A stretch of 10,980 nt of DNA. It comes from Tubiluchus corallicola (Eukaryota > Animalia > Priapulida). Below, one piece after another: positions 1 through 10,979 of this stretch; positions within the stretch are counted from its first letter, which is position 1, and every line of letters starts with the position of its first letter. The notes under the pieces are model-generated. The model saw nothing but the letters and a program-made list of their open reading frames with translations, searched no databases and was not told where the DNA came from. The DNA lies in contig JAQGDQ010001991.1 of NCBI GenBank assembly GCA_030141605.1, forward strand, positions 7,498 through 18,477. The letters run 5' to 3'. Made by a program: the position numbers and the translations under genes.

Positions 1-328
1 ATTGTATTGTTTAGGAAACAATTTGATAATATATTTTTTGTTATACAGTTGTGTCATAATGAATGCTTTTTTTAGACTTGGAATTAACAGAAACTTGTAG
101 TATCTTGGGGAGGTGCTGCCATCATTTGGCTGTAAAATTTATTTACCTGTCTCTTAAACTGTTTACTGTACAATCTATTTACATACCATTTACTGGGTTT
201 CAACTAAAGTTAATGAGCTGTAACAGGAGTCCTGGCTATTGTATGTTGGTCAGTAGTAGTTCAGGTCTCATAGTCTGCTGGTGAATAGTGTAATTGGTGA
301 ATTTCATAATGTAGTTTGTCAAGACTGC

Positions 329-342
329 AATTTATGTTGAAA
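329..342 (+). other. Putative self-primer / transcript 5' end in the LTR
   Basis: 14/14 complementary to 467..480; lies ~58 nt upstream of AATAAA in an Inr-like context (GC-AATTT). Confidence 0.55.
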
Positions 343-386
343 CCTACCCCCCTCTACACCAGCTTCACTGCTTCATTTTTTTTGAC

Positions 387-392
387 AATAAA
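387..392 (+). promoter_or_regulatory. AATAAA polyadenylation signal, 5' LTR copy
   Basis: AATAAA ~75 nt before the LTR end, followed by a GT/T-rich tract. Confidence 0.55.
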
Positions 393-466
393 GGAATCAA
401 CCTGTATCAAAGTGTTCATCATTTTTATTTGGTTACAACATGCAGGCAGACAAACTGGACAAAACA

Positions 467-480
467 TTTCAACATAAATT
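467..480 (+). other. Non-tRNA primer-binding site, putative self-priming
   Basis: TTTCAACATAAATT directly follows the LTR-terminal CA, has no TGG, and is the exact reverse complement of AATTTATGTTGAAA at 329..342. Confidence 0.7.
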
Positions 481-501
481 CAGCACTTTCAATAGGAATT
501 A

Positions 502-1326
502 ATGATGTCAGCTTCGGAGAAAAAGACGAGGAGAACTGTTGCAAAGTCAGCTTTGACAAGGGTACTGAGAAGGCTTCAAAATTTAATTGAAGAGGAAGAC
601 AGTGTGCAAGAAATTAATCGGCTGGTGGATGCTGTGGAGGCTGCACTCAATCATTTGGAAGCATGCCACATTGAATTCTTTAATGCATGCAAACAAGAAC
701 AGCAGAATGTGGATGAAGACAAGGCTTCTCAATACATGGAGCAAGAATATTCAAGAGCAGACAACGTTTTTGCATCAGTTAAGGACTACAAGCGGAGAAT
801 CAGGCGAGTTGAAGAACTCAAGAAAGAGAAGGATGATGAAGCTAAAGCAACGAAGGAAGAGGAAAAAATCATCAGGTGGCACAAAATAGATTTTGATACA
901 CTGATTCATTTATTGCATGGACATATTGAAAATCAGGAAAAGAGGCTTGAGAGCGGAGATACAGCAATTCAGGTTCTGGAGAGTTGTCGGTTAGAAATTC
1001 AGACATTGTTGGAAAAAGTGAGGTTATCATTCACCAAATATGCTTCCTTGCTTGCTGACTATCAGGAAGAGGATAGAAGATTCAATGACGTAGAGACAAT
1101 TGTTAAAGAGATAAATGACAAAGCAATGAACTATATTGGTTCTCAATCATTGCAAAACAATCATGCATCTGGCATGTCAAACAACACTGGAAATGAGCAA
1201 GCATCTGGTAGAGCAAAATTGGAAGCAATACCAATTCCCGGTTTTCGTGGTGGCTACAGTGAATGGCCGACGTTCATCACAAATTGGAGGAGGATTGTCG
1301 AAAAACATTATTCCAGTGAATTTTGA
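502..1326 (+). CDS. gag: N-terminal part of element A Gag (charged helical region and start of DUF1759-like domain), ending at an in-frame TGA
   Basis: Ends with the BEL Gag motif LEAIPIPGFRGGYSEWPTFITNW; same frame as 1336..6387 (..SSEF*AAILNEKLSGEA..). Confidence 0.85.
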   Translation: MMSASEKKTRRTVAKSALTRVLRRLQNLIEEEDSVQEINRLVDAVEAALNHLEACHIEFFNACKQEQQNVDEDKASQYMEQEYSRADNVFASVKDYKRRIRRVEELKKEKDDEAKATKEEEKIIRWHKIDFDTLIHLLHGHIENQEKRLESGDTAIQVLESCRLEIQTLLEKVRLSFTKYASLLADYQEEDRRFNDVETIVKEINDKAMNYIGSQSLQNNHASGMSNNTGNEQASGRAKLEAIPIPGFRGGYSEWPTFITNWRRIVEKHYSSEF

Positions 1327-4300
1327 GCTGCCATCTTGAATGAGAAACTAAGTGGAGAGGCGGCGGATCTAGTAGCTGCCTGTAATGACAACTACGCTGA
1401 AATGATTAAACGCCTTGAAAGAAAATATGGAGATAGAAAGAAAGACACTGAAAGCATCATGGCAGAAATCAGAGATGTCAAGCCTTTATCTTCTGGCAAC
1501 CATGTTGGTTTCATAAAGTTTGTCGACAGGATAGAAAAAGCCAGTACAAAACTAAAGTCACTAGGTATGTTGCAGGAAATTAGCAATGTGGGGGCACTAG
1601 CTGAAATTGAACGCAGGTTACCGGAAGATATTCGTAATGAATGGGCAAGGCACATCATCAGCAAGAGTGATGAGGAGAGACTGGAACCTTTCAAGCTTCT
1701 TTTACCATTTTTGTTAATGGAAAAGGAGCGCGTAGAGTATTTAACTGCAGGTGTACGAAAGCAGTTTGGCAGTGTCAGTAGCCATTATCAGGACATTCAA
1801 CCCGAAGCCTTTGGGACTGGTGGCGGTGCTAAGTTAAAAAGCTGTTTCAAATGTGGCAAACAAGGACATTTTGCTCGTGAATGTAAAGCAAACGGGAGGA
1901 TGGGTGACAAAAGACCTTACTTCAAGTGCAGCACATGCGAAGTAAATGACCATTTAAACAGGGATTGTGAGAAGTTCAAAAATATGACTGTTAATCAAAG
2001 ACGAGATGTAATAAAGAGGCATGGTGCTTGTTATATCTGCTTTGGAAATCATGTGGCAGTAGTATGCAAGGGCACAGCAAAGTGCAAGAAGTGTCAGAAT
2101 GGAGGTCACCATACAATGCTCTGCTCCAAAGAGATGCAATCTGGGCCTGGTAGTGTTTCAAAATCAAATGTTGAAGTGGTTGATTCAACAACTATTTCAA
2201 ATTGTGTGGATGCTAAGAAGGTTACATCAGCTACAGTGACGGATAGTGCTGGTACTGATTCAACAACATTACTTCATATAATGGAGATTCAAGGACCAAG
2301 ACGGGGCAGTAAAATCAATGCTTTCTTTGATTCAGGAAGTTCTGGAATGTTTATAACACATGACTGTGCAAAGCAGAATAAGTTCCCTGGAAAAAGTGAG
2401 ATAATTGATGTTAAAACTTTGCAGGGACATGTCGAAACTTTGGAAACTCAGGTGTATAACGTCACGATAGTGGATAAAGATAATCAACGTCATACCTTTT
2501 TGGCATACGGCCTGGATTCAATAACTGGAAGCATTTCTCCAGTTGACATGACAGTGGTGAAGCGTATTTTTCCAGGGATTTCAGTTGGGGACCTTAAGCG
2601 TCCGAGTGGCACAGTGGAGCTTTTACTTGGCAATTTTAAAGCTGGATGGCAACCTCAACCAATCAGATCAGATGGCGCTCATCTTTTCATTATGGAAAAT
2701 ATGTTTGGTAGGTGTTTGGGTGGATCTCATCCAGAGCTATTTGACACTACCAGAAAGGCAAATGGATGCTGGAAAGAAGCTATTTTTCATGCAAAGGTCT
2801 CTAATTTCAGTACTGAAGTTTTAAGTCATCCACAGCTCAATCCACAGGAGTGCCTAGTGATAAAGCAGTCGGGTGATTCTATGTCATCATTTTCAGTTGG
2901 TACAGAAGATAACTGTGACACCTTCTTTGCAGCTGAAGCACTCGGAACTCAGATTGTGCCGAAATGTGGGGCATGTCGGTGTGGTAAGTGCCCTATACCC
3001 GGGCATACCTACAGTTTCCGGGAAGAAAGTGAGCTACGCTTGATCCGTGAAGGACTCAGCTACGATCTAGATCGCCAAGTCTGGATTTCAAAGTATCCTT
3101 GGATAGTGGACAGATCACAGTTGCCTGATAACTATCAACAAGCTCTGTCAGCTTTACAGTCGTGTGAGACAAGTTTGGCAATAAATACAGAATGGGGTGC
3201 TGTGTATTCAGGTCAGATACAAGACATGGTCGATCGAGGTGCTGCACGCAAACTTAGTCAAGCCGAGATTGATAACTGGAAAGGGCCAGTTTTCTATTTA
3301 TGCCACTTGGCTGCGCTTAACCCTAAGAGCCAGTCAACACCCGTGCGAATTGTTTTCAACAGCAGTAGAAAAGCCAAGGGTAACATTTCACTTAATTCAT
3401 GTTTGGCTAAAGGACCAGACAATTACCTTAATAATTTGCTTGGCGTGTTTTGCAGGTTTCGAGAGCACTCTTTTGCTATTCAAGGGGACATTCGGAAGAT
3501 GTACAACTCAGTTGAAATGGATGTCAATGATCAGCACTGTCACAGATTTCTTTGGCGGGATTGTGATGAAAATAGGGCACCAGATGTATACATCATTACT
3601 GTTGTAAATATTGGCGACCGTCCGGCGGGAGCGATTGCCACTGAAGCATTGTATATGACTGCTGAAATGTTCCAAAGCTCACATCCTCAGGCAGCAAAGG
3701 TCATAAAAGAGTCAACATATGTTGATGATATTCTAGAGTCTTGTGAAGGAAGAGAAAGGGGCCTCGGACTAGCAAAGGAGGTGGAAGATATTTTGAAAAG
3801 AGGGAATTTTAAAGTGAAGTGTTGGCGTTTTTCTCGTGAAGCAACTACAGAAGAAAATTCTCCGGTTAAAGTGATTGCAAATTCAGAAGAGGAAGGTCGA
3901 GTGTTGGGAGTTGTGTGGGACTCAGTGGTGGACAAATTCAAATTTCATGCAAAGATCAATTTCTCAAGACGGAGGAGGAAAGTACGAACAGGTACAGACA
4001 TATGTCGCGAGGAGTTAGCCAGAGAAATGCCACCAATTTTGACAAGACGGATGGTCATGAGCCAAGTCATGTCACTGTTTGACCCATGTGGCTTTCTTAC
4101 TCCAGTCACCATGAAGAGTAAGATACTGCTAAGGGAAACTTGGGTTAAGAAACTTGGCTGGGATGATGCATTGCCATTGGATCTGCGGGAGAAGTTTTTT
4201 GAATTTTTTCAAGAACTCTATGATGTTCAGAGTTTATCATTCCCAAGATGCTTGCAGCCAAGAGAAACTGTTGGTGATCCGATGCTGATCATACTTTCAG

Positions 4301-6387
4301 ATGCTAGTGAGACAGGATTTGGTGCTGTCGCCTATGCTCATTGGGAATTAACTGATGGAGGTAGTAAGAGTCAGCTTATAATGGCAAAGGGTAAAATTGC
4401 TCCGCTGAAGCACATCACGATTCCAAGACTTGAACTAAATGGTGCGCTAGTGGGCAAACGAATAAGGAAATTCATTGAAAGTGAAATGCGGTACAATTTC
4501 ACAGAGGTTTTGCATCTCATTGACTCGAAAACAGTTTTGGGGATGCTACAAAAAACAAGCAGTAGATTCGATCGCTATGTGGGAGTGCGTGTTGGAGAAA
4601 TACAATCTGCATCTAAACTTTCAGAAGACGGGAAACTTGATGAGTGGATGTGGATCGATGGATCTCATAATATTGCAGACTGGGTGACACGTGGAAAGAA
4701 GCCATCAGATTTAGCAAGTGATGAATGGGTAAATGGACCACATTTTCTGAGTTTACCAAGGAGTGAATGGCCTGTATCACCTGCTTCAGTCAGTGAGGAT
4801 GAACTATCAGATATCGCAGCAGTTGGACTAGTTTCTGTCAAGGAGAACGAGTCAGTATTTGATGTATCTCGGTTTAGCAAAGTTAATAGGCTACTTCGTT
4901 CAGTCGCAAGAGTGTTGCAAATAGTGAAACCGTGTGGTGATGGGAAACGCCATTTTTCCAGTGGTTCAGTAATGGTAACAGCTGAGATGTTGGAGGCAGC
5001 CAGGAGACGTGTCATCAAAGAAGCTCAGGACACAGTTGAGGAAGAGTTAGAGAAATCGGCACCAGATAAAGATGGTAAACCCACTGGTAGATTTACAAGG
5101 TTAGCACCAACGAAGAACAGTGACGGATTTTGGGTGGTTGGCAGTAGAATGCAGTGTTATGTCATTTTCACGTGGGACAACCAGCTACCTATTATTTTGC
5201 CATATGGACATCCATTGACACGACTTTTCATGGACGAAGCTCATTCTCAAGGGCATCTTGGGGTGGCTGCAACTCTGGAAAAGTTTCGCAGGAAGTACTG
5301 GGTTCCTCGTGGAACGCAATTGGCCAAAAGTGTCAAGCACAGATGTACTACTTGTAGACGTGTTGATGTCAGAGCAGCGAAACAGCTAATGGGCCCTCTT
5401 CCAGAAGAAAAGCTTAAGCCAGCTCCACCTTGGACAAATACAGGAGTTGATTTGTTTGGCCCATTTAGGGTAAGAGGAGAGGTCAATAAGAGATCAGCTG
5501 GGAAAGCATATGGAGTTCTGTTCGTGTGTTTAATAACAAAGGCTGTCCACATAGAACTTGCGAACAGTTACTCCACTGGCAGCTTTCTTTCATGTCTCCG
5601 TCGGTTTGGTGCAATCAGAGGCTGGCCAACAAAGATGTTCAGTGATGGTGGGTCGCAGCTGAGAGCAGCAGGCAAAGAATTGTTGGAAATGCATCTTCAG
5701 CTAGCAGGAAAAGATGTGTCCACATTCAGTGCTTCAAATGGATTTGCTTGGGAGTTTAGCCCTGCACATGCTCCATGGTGGCAGGGGACAACAGAGAAGT
5801 TGATTCATACGGCAAAAAGGGCGATTTCACTGGCAGTAGGATGTGCACTCATGAGCTATTCCGAGTTACAAACTGTCCTTTACGAGGTGATGCAGCTAAT
5901 AAACCAGCGACCTCTTCATGTACATATTTCAGAGGAGAAGCATTTCAAGGCTTTGACACCGAATGATATGTTGCTTGGTCGCAGCTCTGTGAACATACCT
6001 CCAGGTCCGTGGAACTACAAGGCATCGTACAGAGATCGCTTTAGAGTAATTCAGGCAATTGTCGACACGTTTTGGCGCAGGTGGAGCAGAGACTGTGCAC
6101 CAGCCATGGTAGTTCGTCAGAAGTGGCATCATAGAGAGCGGAACATTCAAGTAGGAGATGTTGTGTTTGTTGCTGACACCAATACTCTGCGAGGAGAGTA
6201 TCGCTTGGCAATGGTGGATGAGGTGTTTCCTGGATCAGATGGAAATGTTCGTCATTGCATCGTCAAATACAAAAACATCAAACCAGATGAGGATGCTAGG
6301 AACTATGGTGGTGCGACATATACAAGGGTAAGACGGCCAGTTCAGCGGTTGGTTGTTCTTGTTCCTGCAGATGGTTGGGAGATTTAA
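1327..6387 (+). CDS. pol: Rest of element A Gag-Pol: Gag C-terminus, Zn knuckles, aspartic protease, RT, RNase H, integrase
   Basis: Zn knuckles 1843..2124; protease FFDSGS (D 2329); RT YVDD 3718..3729; RNase H SDAS (D 4300), PRLEL, DSKTVL, NIADW; integrase HHCC (H..GH...CTTC) and D5449/D5644/E5794; DUF5641-like C-terminus. Confidence 0.95.
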   Translation, partial: AAILNEKLSGEAADLVAACNDNYAEMIKRLERKYGDRKKDTESIMAEIRDVKPLSSGNHVGFIKFVDRIEKASTKLKSLGMLQEISNVGALAEIERRLPEDIRNEWARHIISKSDEERLEPFKLLLPFLLMEKERVEYLTAGVRKQFGSVSSHYQDIQPEAFGTGGGAKLKSCFKCGKQGHFARECKANGRMGDKRPYFKCSTCEVNDHLNRDCEKFKNMTVNQRRDVIKRHGACYICFGNHVAVVCKGTAKCKKCQNGGHHTMLCSKEMQSGPGSVSKSNVEVVDSTTISNCVDAKKVTSATVTDSAGTDSTTLLHIMEIQGPRRGSKINAFFDSGSSGMFITHDCAKQNKFPGKSEIIDVKTLQGHVETLETQVYNVTIVDKDNQRHTFLAYGLDSITGSISPVDMTVVKRIFPGISVGDLKRPSGTVELLLGNFKAGWQPQPIRSDGAHLFIMENMFGRCLGGSHPELFDTTRKANGCWKEAIFHAKVSNFSTEVLSHPQLNPQECLVIKQSGDSMSSFSVGTEDNCDTFFAAEALGTQIVPKCGACRCGKCPIPGHTYSFREESELRLIREGLSYDLDRQVWISKYPWIVDRSQLPDNYQQALSALQSCETSLAINTEWGAVYSGQIQDMVDRGAARKLSQAEIDNWKGPVFYLCHLAALNPKSQSTPVRIVFNSSRKAKGNISLNSCLAKGPDNYLNNLLGVFCRFREHSFAIQGDIRKMYNSVEMDVNDQHCHRFLWRDCDENRAPDVYIITVVNIGDRPAGAIATEALYMTAEMFQSSHPQAAKVIKESTYVDDILESCEGRERGLGLAKEVEDILKRGNFKVKCWRFSREATTEENSPVKVIANSEEEGRVLGVVWDSVVDKFKFHAKINFSRRRRKVRTGTDICREELAREMPPILTRRMVMSQVMSLFDPCGFLTPVTMKSKILLRETWVKKLGWDDALPLDLREKFFEFFQELYDVQSLSFPRCLQPRETVGDPMLIILSDASETGFGAVAYAHWELTDGGSKSQLIMAKGKIAPLKHITIPRLELNGALVGKRIRKFIESEMRYNFTEVLHLIDSKTVLGMLQKTSSRFDRYVGVRVGEIQSASKLSEDGKLDEWMWIDGSHNIADWVTRGKKPSDLASDEWVNGPHFLSLPRSEWPVSPASVSEDELSDIAAVGLVSVKENESVFDVSRFSKVNRLLRSVARVLQIVKPCGDGKRHFSSGSVMVTAEMLEAARRRVIKEAQDTVEEELEKSAPDKDGKPTGRFTRLAPTKNSDGFWVVGSRMQCYVIFTWDNQLPIILPYGHPLTRLFMDEAHSQGHLGVAATLEKFRRKYWVPRGTQLAKSVKHRCTTCRRVDVRAAKQLMGPLPEEKLKPAPPWTNTGVDLFGPFRVRGEVNKRSAGKAYGVLFVCLITKAVHIELANSYSTGSFLSCLRRFGAIRGWPTKMFSDGGSQLRAAGKELLEMHLQLAGKDVSTFSASNGFAWEFSPAHAPWWQGTTEKLIHTAKRAISLAVGCALMSYSELQTVLYEVMQLINQRPLHVHISEEKHFKALTPNDMLLGRSSVNIPPGPWNYKASYRDRFRVIQAIVDTFWRRWSRDCAPAMVVRQKWHHRERNIQVGDVVFVADTNTLRGEYRLAMVDEVFPGSDGNVRHCIVKYKNIKPDEDARNYGGATYTRVRRPVQRLVVLVPADGWEI

Positions 6388-6414: not shown

Positions 6415-6419
6415 GGGGG
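6415..6419 (+). other. Minimal polypurine tract (GGGGG)
   Basis: G run directly abutting the TG of the 3' LTR, preceded by a T9 tract at 6400..6408. Confidence 0.55.
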
Positions 6420-6882
6420 TGTATTGTTTAGGAAACAATTTGATAATATATTTTTTGTTATACAGTTGTGTCATAATGAATGCTTTTTTTAGACTTGGAA
6501 TTAACAGAAACTTGTAGTATCTTGGGGAGGTGCTGCCATCCTTTGGCTGTAAAATTAATTTACCTGTCTCTTAAACTGTTTACTGTACAATCTATTTACA
6601 TACCATTTACTGGGTTTCAACTAAAGTTAATGAGCTGTAACAGGAGTCCTGGCTATTGTATGTTGGTCAGTAGTAGTTCAGGTCTCATAGTCTGCTGGTG
6701 AATAGTGTAATTGGTGAGTTTCATAATGTAGTTTGTCAAGACTGCAATTTATGTTGAAACCTACCCCCCTCTACACCAGCTTCACTGCTTCATTTTTTTT
6801 ACAATAAAGGAATCAACCTGTATCAAAGTGTTCATCATTTTTATTTGGTTACAACATGCAGGCAGACAAACTGGACAAAACA
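6420..6882 (+). repeat. 3' LTR of element A (463 bp)
   Basis: Copy of 3..466. Differences by eye: A124/C6541, T140/A6557, A301/G6718, and G384 missing (~99% identity). Confidence 0.95.
6803..6808 (+). terminator. AATAAA polyadenylation signal, 3' LTR (probable functional copy)
   Basis: Same motif in the 3' LTR, with downstream GTGTT and TTTTTATTTGGTT. Confidence 0.6.
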
Positions 6883-6887
6883 TTCAT
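6883..6887. repeat. Probable 5-bp target-site duplication TTCAT (right copy)
   Basis: TTCAT follows the 3' LTR; window positions 1-2 (AT) match its last two bases. The rest of the left copy is outside the window. Confidence 0.6.
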
Positions 6888-7430: not shown

Positions 7431-10421
7431 CTAGCAGTCCTTTTCCAGTAACAATGCAGGCCTAACGAAGACATGAGGCAAAGCTATTTTATTGCCAGTG
7501 TTTACCCCAGTAACAGACATCTTCGTGATTAAAGTGTTTATCTTGGAATATTTCTCTTCTATAGTGGTTAAAGAGAGCGTTCGTTTTTGTCCAGTAGCCC
7601 CAAGTTTGTCGAACAATGCCTTTGTACAAAAAGTGTTAGTCGAGCCAGGGTCAAGTAGGGCTAAAGTACGCACGGGCATCTTCCCATCAACTTCAACCAA
7701 AACTGAGACAACAGGGAGAGCCGCTTTGCCGCCTTCCTTAATACTAGCACAACTGCTAGAAGCTTCTGGTTTACAATGTGTTGGCGCTTTTTCCTTCTTG
7801 CTTCCATCATTGTTTTTAGAAGGTGACATTTTCTCCAAGGCAGCATGCAGTAAATTTGAATGCTTACGTCTGCATCCTTCTACGTCGCATCCTGCTTTGA
7901 AGCATCGAGCAGCCCTGTGCTTTCCTTTAATCAAACAATTGAAGCAAAGACCTTCTCTTCTGGCGGTTTTCAATCTATCAGTATCATTCATTGACTTAAA
8001 TTTATTGCATAGCCTGAGTGAACGGTGTTCCGTAGAGTTACATAGAAAACAAGGCATCTCTAGGCGTTGAGAAGCCATTTTGCCACCACTTCCGGTTGTA
8101 TTTCCGGGTTGTCGTTCACTGTTGCATTTCGTAATTGATGCAGTTTCCTGCGCTGAGCTGGCGAAATTCCTGGCTTTGGTGTCGCGTCTACCTTTTGGGC
8201 TCCTAGTAGACAGGCTAACGTTAATGTCGCCAAAGACCGGATGATTAATTTTGTCAGCTGCGTCCTTAATGAATTCGACTACATCAAATATCGTCGGATT
8301 CCTGTGCTCATATTTCAGAAGCCTGGCTACAACATCCTTCCACCTATCCTGGAACTTGAATGGGAGTTTTTTAATTATTTGTAGCAAACTGCATTGAGTA
8401 CTAATTTCGCAAACGTTGTTCATTATTTTCAAAGTTTCCACACAAGCCACAATCAAATCAGAAAATTCCTGTAACTTTCCCGGCTCATTTATCTTTATGG
8501 GCTCAAATTCAGCAATTCTGGAAAGCCAGGCCTGTGTGACAACAAATGGCGAGCCGAATCTTTCGGTTAAAAGCTGTTTAGCATGCCCATATGCAAAACG
8601 GGGGTCCATATAATTACAACTGTCAACAACTCTTTTAGCTTTACCAATGCAGAGTTGGGCTAACCTAGTGTACCTCGCTGCATCATCTTGGGTATAGTTC
8701 TCCACGCTGGCTTCGAAACGCTTGATAAAGCTCCAGAACTTCATTACGTCACCATCAAACGTTTCAAGCTGCACGTGTGGAAGCTGCATAGCATTGTACA
8801 TATTTAAGTGTTGTCTTTGGCCTTCTAACATGAGGTCCATAAAAACGTTCATGTCATTCTGACTAGCCCTACCGGAGAAATTCCTAGAATTATTTTGTAT
8901 CCCGTTACCACAAGAAGCCTGAGGCGATGTAGCCGGAAGCGGAAGTTGCGTATTCCCTGGGACGAAGTCACGTGCAGAAATATTTAAAGTTTGTTCTACC
9001 TGGGGTGATTTAAATGCGGCATGGAAGAACGGCGTAGTTTGTTTAACGCTAGGTTCTAAACCTTCACTGGAAGAATTTTCGAAGAAGGGCTGTACATCAG
9101 ATAAATAGATATTCCACCATCTACGAAGAAAACCTGATTCATAGTCATCCGAAAAATTGACGTTTACATATTCAGTATAATCCCAGGGCTTCTTTCGGCC
9201 TAAAAAGTGCGCAACTTTAATCTTGCTACTGAACTGCTTCATTGCAGGAAGGTAACCGTAACGACCTTGGACGGCAGCATTATACACAAAAGGTAGGCGC
9301 TTGTCAAACTGTGAACTCCAGTTCGGAAAGGCTAAATTTAATAAACCCTGATCACCGCCATCGAATGAACAGGCCTCAGTTTGTGATAGTGACAACAATC
9401 TACTGTAAGTTTCCAAATTAGGCTGAAATACAAACATTCCAGAATTAAAACAATCAGGCCACCCCACATCTGGGGCAGCCGCAAGCTCATCATAATTGAA
9501 TAACTCATCAATATTATCTAATACTAAAGTATCAGCATCTAAGTAAACGCACTTTGTAAACTGAGTCATAGCCCAGCAGTGCAATTTCGAGAATGTTACA
9601 TTTAGCTCTGGCCTACCTAGCAAATGCAAGTTATCAAAATCACTACTCTTTAATAAATCAATCATTTGTACATAATCAAAAACATTACTAAGCTCTGCCA
9701 TAACTCTGCTAGAAACAGTATGGGTGACCAAAATTGCTAGATGTCGAGTTGTACCAGTTCGACGCAAACTGTGTGCCAAGACAAGAGCTCCCTTAGCATA
9801 ACTGTCGTTCATTGCCATGGTGAGATAGGCCTCCATAGACGTATGATGAACTGCAGGCTTGGTGTCTGATGACTGGGCTTTGGTGACGTCACGCACTCCT
9901 TGAAGCCAATCGGTAACCTTGTCCTTGGTTGACATGGGTTTCCTAGCTAAAGTCTCGTCCTTGATTTCAGGCGAGGTGATGGTTGTACGCGACTTCTGAC
10001 TGGTTGCACTGCTATGTGAAGTAACTTCACTCTCAAGTCTTAACTGTTTTAACTTCATTGCTTTTAATTTCAGCTCCTGTTCCTGAATCTTAATCTCATG
10101 CAACTTTACTTCCCTGGCACTTTTCTTCGACCGTCTCGTAGATTTCAAATGACTAGCACCTGAAGATGCTTTGGAAGGGCTGCGCTCGCCAACTTGATGC
10201 TGCGCTGTCGCTGTAGCTGCGTCAGCATACGACGACGTACCAGACGCTTCACATGACGTTACATTATATGAATGATCTGGTTTCTGCTGACTTGCTAAGA
10301 GTCTGTGAATTAGCTCTTCTTTACTACCAGAAACTGACAGTTGTTTGGCCCGCAGCATTTCTCGCAGCTGATCACGGGTAGTATTTTTTAATTTCTCCCT
10401 TGTTGTTTGGTCCGACATCAT
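7431..10421 (-). CDS. gag: Element B Gag-protease polyprotein, 996 aa to an in-frame TAG: SAP, charged helical region, glycogenin, PAM2-like, DUF1759 Gag, Zn knuckles, protease
   Basis: One uninterrupted ORF. Knuckles CFLC..H..C, CFNC..H..C, C..C..KHSNLLH; protease motif LDPGS. Confidence 0.92.
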   Translation of the reverse strand: MMSDQTTREKLKNTTRDQLREMLRAKQLSVSGSKEELIHRLLASQQKPDHSYNVTSCEASGTSSYADAATATAQHQVGERSPSKASSGASHLKSTRRSKKSAREVKLHEIKIQEQELKLKAMKLKQLRLESEVTSHSSATSQKSRTTITSPEIKDETLARKPMSTKDKVTDWLQGVRDVTKAQSSDTKPAVHHTSMEAYLTMAMNDSYAKGALVLAHSLRRTGTTRHLAILVTHTVSSRVMAELSNVFDYVQMIDLLKSSDFDNLHLLGRPELNVTFSKLHCWAMTQFTKCVYLDADTLVLDNIDELFNYDELAAAPDVGWPDCFNSGMFVFQPNLETYSRLLSLSQTEACSFDGGDQGLLNLAFPNWSSQFDKRLPFVYNAAVQGRYGYLPAMKQFSSKIKVAHFLGRKKPWDYTEYVNVNFSDDYESGFLRRWWNIYLSDVQPFFENSSSEGLEPSVKQTTPFFHAAFKSPQVEQTLNISARDFVPGNTQLPLPATSPQASCGNGIQNNSRNFSGRASQNDMNVFMDLMLEGQRQHLNMYNAMQLPHVQLETFDGDVMKFWSFIKRFEASVENYTQDDAARYTRLAQLCIGKAKRVVDSCNYMDPRFAYGHAKQLLTERFGSPFVVTQAWLSRIAEFEPIKINEPGKLQEFSDLIVACVETLKIMNNVCEISTQCSLLQIIKKLPFKFQDRWKDVVARLLKYEHRNPTIFDVVEFIKDAADKINHPVFGDINVSLSTRSPKGRRDTKARNFASSAQETASITKCNSERQPGNTTGSGGKMASQRLEMPCFLCNSTEHRSLRLCNKFKSMNDTDRLKTARREGLCFNCLIKGKHRAARCFKAGCDVEGCRRKHSNLLHAALEKMSPSKNNDGSKKEKAPTHCKPEASSSCASIKEGGKAALPVVSVLVEVDGKMPVRTLALLDPGSTNTFCTKALFDKLGATGQKRTLSLTTIEEKYSKINTLITKMSVTGVNTGNKIALPHVFVRPALLLEKDC
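9081..9836 (-). CDS. GYG: Glycogenin catalytic domain (glycosyltransferase family 8) inside Gag, aa ~196-447
   Basis: NDSYAKGALVL, RPELNVTFSKLHCW, YLDADTLVLDNIDELF (DxD 9539..9531), AAPDVGWPDCFNSG, SFDGGDQGLLN, LPFVYN, YGYLPA (Tyr 9260..9258), HFLGRKKPW, WWNIY; colinear with animal glycogenin-1 as I recall it. Confidence 0.95.
10290..10391 (-). other. SAP DNA/RNA-binding motif at the N-terminus of B Gag
   Basis: LKNTTRDQLREMLRAKQLSVSGSKEELIHRL fits the SAP pattern L..L...L+..L...gL..sG.K..Li.RL. Confidence 0.8.
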
Positions 10422-10532
10422 TTAGGTGTGTTCAACTTTAAACATGACCAAATAACTTCTCCTGTCTACAAAAGTCAATCTATGTACGCGAAACAGTAGC
10501 TAAACCGGAAGTAGGTCACAATCTGGGTCATA

Positions 10533-10979
10533 TGTTGACTGTATAAAAATGTCCACTCTGGATTGTCGAATGCCGATATAAAATTGCTTGGGCTTTACGG
10601 AGACAAACAAACAAAGTCATCATTCGCTCAGTGTAACTGTTTATTGTTTGTACTATTTTCATGGCACATGCCCCGTAGTCATATTTGCTTCATCCCAAAA
10701 TATTACATTTTATCTGAAATAATATATAAATTTCTTTAATAAACTGATTCATTTTTACCAAAACATCGAATATGATTAAATTAATGAGAAGCTTACAACA
10801 AAATAAAATAAATGACTAAATAAAATTTACGTACATCGTTGGCATTAATCATGAGTTCACACAGCTACGTCACCACATGTACACCTTGAAACCTAAATGA
10901 CCGGAAACTCTGTAGGAAGCGACTATTGAGGCCAGGTGTCGCCACTTGTAACTTATAGCTATACTAAATTTGACAAACA
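10533..10979 (-). repeat. Probable 5' LTR of element B (boundaries uncertain)
   Basis: Non-coding region upstream of gag. Minus strand starts TGTTTG at 10979, TATATA at ~10728, AATAAA at 10645..10640, candidate end AACA at 10533 (alternative 10429). No second LTR in the window to confirm. Confidence 0.35.

Follow-up and report, generated by a model that had tools for sequence, protein, structure and literature searches.

Complementarity between the primer site and the LTR in a BEL/Pao element of Tubiluchus corallicola and its relatives suggests self-primed reverse transcription with a possible link to splicing

In this study, we examined a stretch of 10,980 nucleotides from the priapulid Tubiluchus corallicola, referred to as the window, and related it to homologous elements in other sequence collections. 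The window begins with a complete BEL/Pao element on the plus strand, bounded by a 5′ LTR at 3–466 (464 bp, TG...CA) and a 3′ LTR at 6420–6882 (463 bp), which upon alignment differ by three substitutions and one 1-base indel. Since the contigs of other copies leave the window sequence just behind 466 and 6882 (three runs), the position of the LTR end does not depend on the pairing described below. An apparent 2-base extension of the LTR (TT) arises only from the 3′ flank, which begins TTCAT; this motif (6883–6887) is the likely 5-bp target-site duplication, of whose left copy only the last two bases are visible (AT, window 1–2). At the position of the polypurine tract, directly before the 3′ LTR, there is only a run of five G (6415–6419), compared to about 10 bases in the ICTV description of the Belpaoviridae.

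Between the LTRs, a gag-pol region in one frame (496–6387) consists of open reading frames at 496–1326 and 1327–6387, with an in-frame stop in gag at 1324–1326. Pfam domains follow the BEL/Pao order (DUF1759, zf-CCHC, Asp_protease_2, RVT_1, Peptidase_A17, Integrase_H2C2, DUF5641), the Asp_protease_2 and RVT_1 matches falling under Pfam's cut-off, and bear out the assignment to BEL/Pao made in an initial annotation of this DNA. PF05380 is present in 120 of 120 homologues among the matches listed, and the Pfam search of the element's proteins found no chromodomain. The closest proteins among the matches listed, almost all unnamed and one from Paramuricea clavata, share 45–58% identity over the RT-RNase H region. 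The gag stop is found despite 99% LTR identity; the copy is young and probably not autonomous. In LTR size, TG...CA ends, domain order and single frame, the element agrees with the ICTV profile of the Belpaoviridae (Semotivirus: LTRs of 0.2–1.2 kb, Gag-PR-RT-RH-IN, one long frame) (PMC8742986). By its proteins it is BEL/Pao-type, but its priming is not that of a typical ICTV belpaovirid.

The studied element is inserted in a second BEL-type element, on the minus strand, which at 7431–10421 carries a 996-aa gag-protease frame with a SAP domain. The same frame holds an intronless glycogenin-like GT8 domain (~9174–9824), placed in frame before DUF1759 and with 47–56% identity to animal glycogenins. 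In the leader of this neighbour, a TG...CA-bounded stretch at 10484–10800 (minus) may, by eye, be another solo LTR. Its own primer site (10942–10948, minus) reads CA, two bases, then TGG, and is thus ordinary-looking, an internal contrast to the studied element.

Directly after the 5′ LTR of the studied element there is no TGG. Instead, the adjoining 467–480 (TTTCAACATAAATT) is the exact reverse complement, over 14 of 14 bases, of 329–342 (AATTTATGTTGAAA) within the LTR, of which the 3′ LTR holds a second copy at 6746–6759. A342 pairs with T467, the first base past the terminal CA, while C343 and A466 are unpaired; as the pairing ends at the LTR end, a 3′ end at 342 faces U5, the orientation required of a minus-strand primer. 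The missing TGG, the full-length pairing and its abutment on the terminal CA had all been put forward in the initial annotation, and each stood up against the window sequence and the independently set LTR end. The segment is AT-rich, which would favour a chance match or a single local inverted duplication peculiar to this copy. Such an origin has a vanishingly small probability: when the LTR was shuffled 100,000 times under a second-order Markov model, only 2 shuffles gave a match of 14 bases, none of the other anchor positions in the window (~9,970) gave more than 11 bases, and the pairing is kept in the family copies and, with other letters, across the tree, a cross-family pattern that already refutes it.

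To place the pairing in the context of related elements, we searched with the window protein aligned to 60 homologues. This yielded 101 confirmed stretches from metagenome contigs, and we retained 78 loci (L numbers below). The single-protein query returned no loci from metagenome and viral contigs, and the alignment query none from viral and genome contigs. A primer site could be placed in 36 loci, making 37 sites with the window; the other 42 of the 78 end before the LTR, repeat a family already counted or have an unclear LTR end (the last being L004, L050, L052, L054, L061 and L076). A further 11 loci have a primer site and too little LTR to score. This left 25 families, window included, with L027 omitted as belonging to the same family as L025. 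The score of each was its best match, either contiguous or bridging one consensus GT–AG join. A match to the family's own LTR of at least 10 bases was found in 21 of 25 families, and of at least 8 in 24 of 25; among the controls, 9 of 600 pairings between families and 0 of 500 shifted anchors reached 10. The 25 families are kin, and these counts, like the permutation values below, overstate independence. Six families have an LTR end fixed by a second LTR copy rather than by pairing, and all six match, over 9–15 bases: contiguously in the window (14), L056 (9) and L025 (10, with the end taken from L027), and after a GT–AG join in L006 (11), L018 (14) and L022/L037 (15, the site of L022 being joined to the LTR of L037). 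In 11 families the LTR end was chosen with the pairing in view; for eight of these, no more than 13 of 400 shuffles did as well, and L045, L057 and L058 are weak alone (28, 42 and 106 of 400). L027 has a substitution in its primer segment and an anchored match of 3. In L006, both LTR copies end in AA rather than CA (467).

The same layout, with complementarity in register with the LTR end and no TGG, recurs across the lineage in other letters. Compensatory letters are seen in GTTGAAAACC/GGTTTTCAAC versus GTTGATAACC/GGTTATCAAC, and GTAAC, GTACC and GTGAC are each matched by their own complement after an AG; the compensatory changes that the initial annotation had proposed looking for in relatives are thus present. 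In a quick tree (SH-aLRT only, unnamed loci only, L072 and L074 dropped as too short), the scored families lie on deep branches on both sides of the window element, which shares at most 53% identity with any row. Taken together, we consider it quite likely that the studied element primes minus-strand synthesis with its own RNA.

A different primer could be a host tRNA fragment or other small RNA, the LTR match being secondary, as in half-tRNA-primed Ty1/copia elements. Half-tRNA priming does exist without a TGG site, according to the accessible part of one account (PMC6317226), and many of our primer sites share a GT(A/G) start. We nevertheless regard this as very improbable, given that the 37 sites, none with TGG in its first six bases, comprise 28 different first 10-mers, each tracking its own LTR. 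Rfam found no tRNA in window 1–700, only three matches at chance level, which speaks only to a tRNA-like gene in that interval, and ARAGORN found no tRNAs in the 16 of 78 loci scanned.

Alternatively, the duplex could be a leader structure serving packaging, dimerisation, translation control or the shielding of the 5′ poly(A) signal, with another RNA acting as primer. Covariation demonstrates that a pairing is kept and not what it is for, and the AATAAA at 387–392, the likely poly(A) signal, lies in the loop closed by the helix. This explanation is improbable, if less so than a host RNA primer, in that in 24 of 25 families (for some by construction) the helix lies exactly where a primer site belongs and goes no further than the LTR end, and no other primer site exists in 37 of 37. 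As for the fold itself, the helix 329–342/467–480 is part of the minimum-energy structure predicted for 324–500, which is modestly more stable than shuffles (z −1.86), and in a search for a U5-IR-like stem the minimum-energy and centroid folds of this stretch agreed only on the primer helix.

Comparison of family copies over 250–560 (four runs of two samples) bears on how the 5′ part of the RNA might be made. Substitutions fall at 13 positions in 283–302 and also at 320, 356–377 and 407–435, with none listed in 250–282, 321–355 and 436–482. The primer segment is therefore free of the listed substitutions while the surrounding LTR varies; few contigs reach the primer site, whose own constancy is weakly sampled. 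The variable stretch begins right after a GT (281–282) and ends just before an AG (322–323), and several contigs from the two samples have a different pyrimidine-rich upstream sequence joined at 322/323, one such form apparently without the A of the AG. The stretch reads best as a candidate 43-base intron at 281–323, with a possible second donor at 297; a U3/R border would look similar. The acceptor in the window is weak, passing only the lowest of three pyrimidine thresholds, and the candidate intron ends five bases before the primer. The RNA may accordingly start upstream of the candidate intron and then be spliced. No joint across 281–323 was seen in the DNA contigs, as expected for DNA, nor was an intron-containing version of the window family's primer seen among the loose ends listed. 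Among the matches listed, the window stretch was not found in any RNA run; one run guessed to be RNA covers only 6079–6230, at low identity.

A link to splicing is more conspicuous in the relatives. In 10 families, a contiguous match of 5–7 bases grows to 10–14 once a GT–AG segment inside the LTR is removed. In nine of these 10 split families, the contiguous match, for which no splice rule was applied, begins immediately 3′ of an AG with pyrimidines before it, and the upstream donors joined to it read GTAAG, GTGAG or GTATG. When the nearest donor was taken in each of the 15 families with an acceptor, the summed upstream match was 59 against a permutation mean of 15.9, a value reached in 0 of 200,000 permutations; this rule settles on a donor without a match in two of the 10 split families. 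The remaining five of the 15 have a primer that begins at the acceptor, to which the upstream exon contributes only 0–3 bases. A signal resembling AATAAA lies 3′ of the acceptor in 12 of 15 relatives examined. Further, one L006 LTR copy lacks exactly the 205-base GT...AG segment held by the other copy and by L007, which indicates that LTR introns of the L006 clade are probably spliced, unless the assembler has merged two copies, as it may have done. This segment (L006 7175–7379, compared with L006 55/56 and L007 7030) is an upstream LTR intron and not the primer intron. In a sister clade, the predicted intron lies inside the primer, and therefore splicing would be needed to make it.

The layout of these LTRs varies within the lineage. 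In the split-primer clade, the long LTRs of L001, L009, L020, L028, L036 and L051 have a second consensus donor further upstream and, by eye, an acceptor ~100 bases before the primer donor, a multi-exon layout within the LTR. L025, L027 and L072 have contiguous primers that end in the same seven bases as stand behind the acceptor in the split primer of L018/L022; in this comparison with split-primer kin, the tree places L025 and L027 in the same subclade. These contiguous primers point to a possible loss of the intron or to an acceptor one base earlier.

Two routes to a self-primer are thereby suggested for the window. In the first, towards which we lean at slightly less than even confidence, the RNA would start upstream of 281 and the intron 281–323 would be removed, leaving the primer five bases into the next exon. 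In the second, that of the initial annotation and a sub-case of self-priming with the geometry of Tf1, the transcription start would lie no more than a few bases from 329, the opening 14 bases of the RNA would serve as the primer and no splicing would take place; in that case, the window primer may derive from a split primer that has lost its intron. We hold this second route to be somewhat less probable than the first. Consistent with it, position 329 is the A of a C|A step (328/329), and across families the paired stretch starts at a pyrimidine-A in six of 17, against a background of 16% (p ~0.04, post hoc), or, if one base of slack is allowed, in 10 of 17 (p 0.02, post hoc). The differing upstream sequences joined at 322/323 could mark the U3/R border, and the total matches of 10–15 bases resemble the 11 of Tf1. 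Against it, the variable stretch lies between a GT and an AG, pyrimidine tracts make up the alternative upstream forms, no clear TATA box is visible upstream by eye, and an acceptor lies 4–20 bases before the primer 3′ end in 17–19 of 24 families versus a background of 13–35%, a comparison that is partly circular for the split families.

Folding predictions can be read alongside both routes. For RNAs that begin at 329 or 324, the predicted probability of the duplex is 0.92–0.97, in favour of a start near the primer. With more upstream sequence, a competing hairpin is predicted in which 305–317 pairs with 322–329 and 332–336, and in the unspliced fold of 250–520 the primer duplex does not form. 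Over 32 choices of start and end, the mean duplex probability of unspliced RNA is 0.48, with 15 of 32 models below 0.5; with the candidate intron out, it is 0.89 or 0.96, with 1 and 0 of 32 models below 0.5. This modelled gain shows only that the competing hairpin arm (305–317) lies in the candidate intron. An extra pairing of 276–280, the predicted end of the upstream exon, with 481–485 was also considered; its probability is 0.00–0.56, mostly below 0.3, and base 483 varies, and it was not counted.

Under self-priming, and by analogy with Tf1, 329–342 of the element RNA would pair with 467–480 inside the particle, the element's own RNase H would cleave it behind 342, and reverse transcriptase would extend the resulting 3′ end into U5. 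Strong-stop DNA could then transfer through the stretch from 343 to the poly(A) site downstream of AATAAA 387–392, the signal being active in the 3′ LTR copy. On the splicing route, removal of 281–323 would also remove the competing hairpin. Inheritance of the intron would require that splicing spare the 3′ LTR copy in the template, which a cap-proximal donor or separate primer and template RNAs could bring about. Extending this to the relatives, we give slight preference to a broader proposal: that a broad BEL/Pao lineage may have dropped tRNA priming and made host splicing a licence for reverse transcription, with a primer that in at least 11 families would exist only after removal of an intron from the 5′ LTR, and that in the window would be freed from a hairpin by such removal.

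Until now, self-priming has been described for Tf1 and Tf2 of Schizosaccharomyces pombe and proposed for Tcn1; in Tf1, pairing involves the initial 11 bases, and the RNase H cut falls between bases 11 and 12, as given in the accessible portion of one source (PMC7175516). Like these elements and the Tf1/sushi group of Ty3/gypsy, the studied element has no tRNA site, and the bases right behind its LTR can pair, in primer orientation, with a short segment of the LTR. Unlike the Tf1/sushi group, it has BEL/Pao proteins, no chromodomain and 14 paired bases, and the primer of its relatives follows or spans a predicted intron; in contrast to Tf1, the primer as the 5′ end of the RNA is only a candidate reading here. 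The feature is real and would work like Tf1 self-priming, in an element that is not a member of the Tf1/sushi group. A parallel in the kind of evidence is offered by the Tcn1 chromoviruses and the TAR elements of plants (Houba, Osr-1; Ty1/copia), for which self-priming was likewise predicted from sequence alone, outside Tf1/sushi; they belong to other superfamilies, and the accessible part of that work describes no splice link for them (PMC6317226). The dictyostelid element Skipper and the fungal GalEa are also LTR elements without TGG. From what is accessible of the respective papers, Skipper has no tRNA site and no complement in the LTR (PMC5006619) and GalEa has no tRNA site and an internal hairpin (PMC6934838), unlike the studied element, whose complement lies in the LTR.

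Within the Belpaoviridae, the ICTV profile describes a primer site of 18 bases for tRNA-Arg or tRNA-Gly and regards replication as poorly understood (PMC8742986), whereas the studied lineage has no such site (no TGG in 37 of 37); the remark in the initial annotation that self-priming is not known to be established for this family agrees with that profile. In the accessible portions of PMC3601003, PMC6934838, PMC8556966, PMC3286476 and PMC5006619, BEL/Pao self-priming is not reported, and terms for a PBS or for priming are absent from the accessible main text of the BEL/Pao surveys PMC3118150, PMC554778 and PMC6238403. In the literature covered, which lies mostly outside subscription journals, Repbase and the supplements of genome papers, we found no published account of self-priming or of a spliced primer in BEL/Pao. 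Repbase notes self-primed LTR families in animals, and these may include BEL families. Overall, the initial annotation stood as to the BEL/Pao assignment, the kept complementarity and the novelty in the published record that we covered; its transcription start near 329 is one of two candidate readings, and it missed the link to splicing.

Priming in the Belpaoviridae has so far been assumed and not measured. If our reading is true, self-priming would extend to a third LTR superfamily, after Ty3/gypsy and, by prediction, Ty1/copia, and such elements would presumably be beyond silencing by tRNA fragments at the primer site. LTR finders based on the PBS would overlook such elements or judge them wrongly. 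Were splicing to build the primer or set it free, the initial step of reverse transcription would be coupled to RNA processing in the nucleus, and the differing splicing of two LTR copies in one RNA would present a puzzle that can be put to the test.
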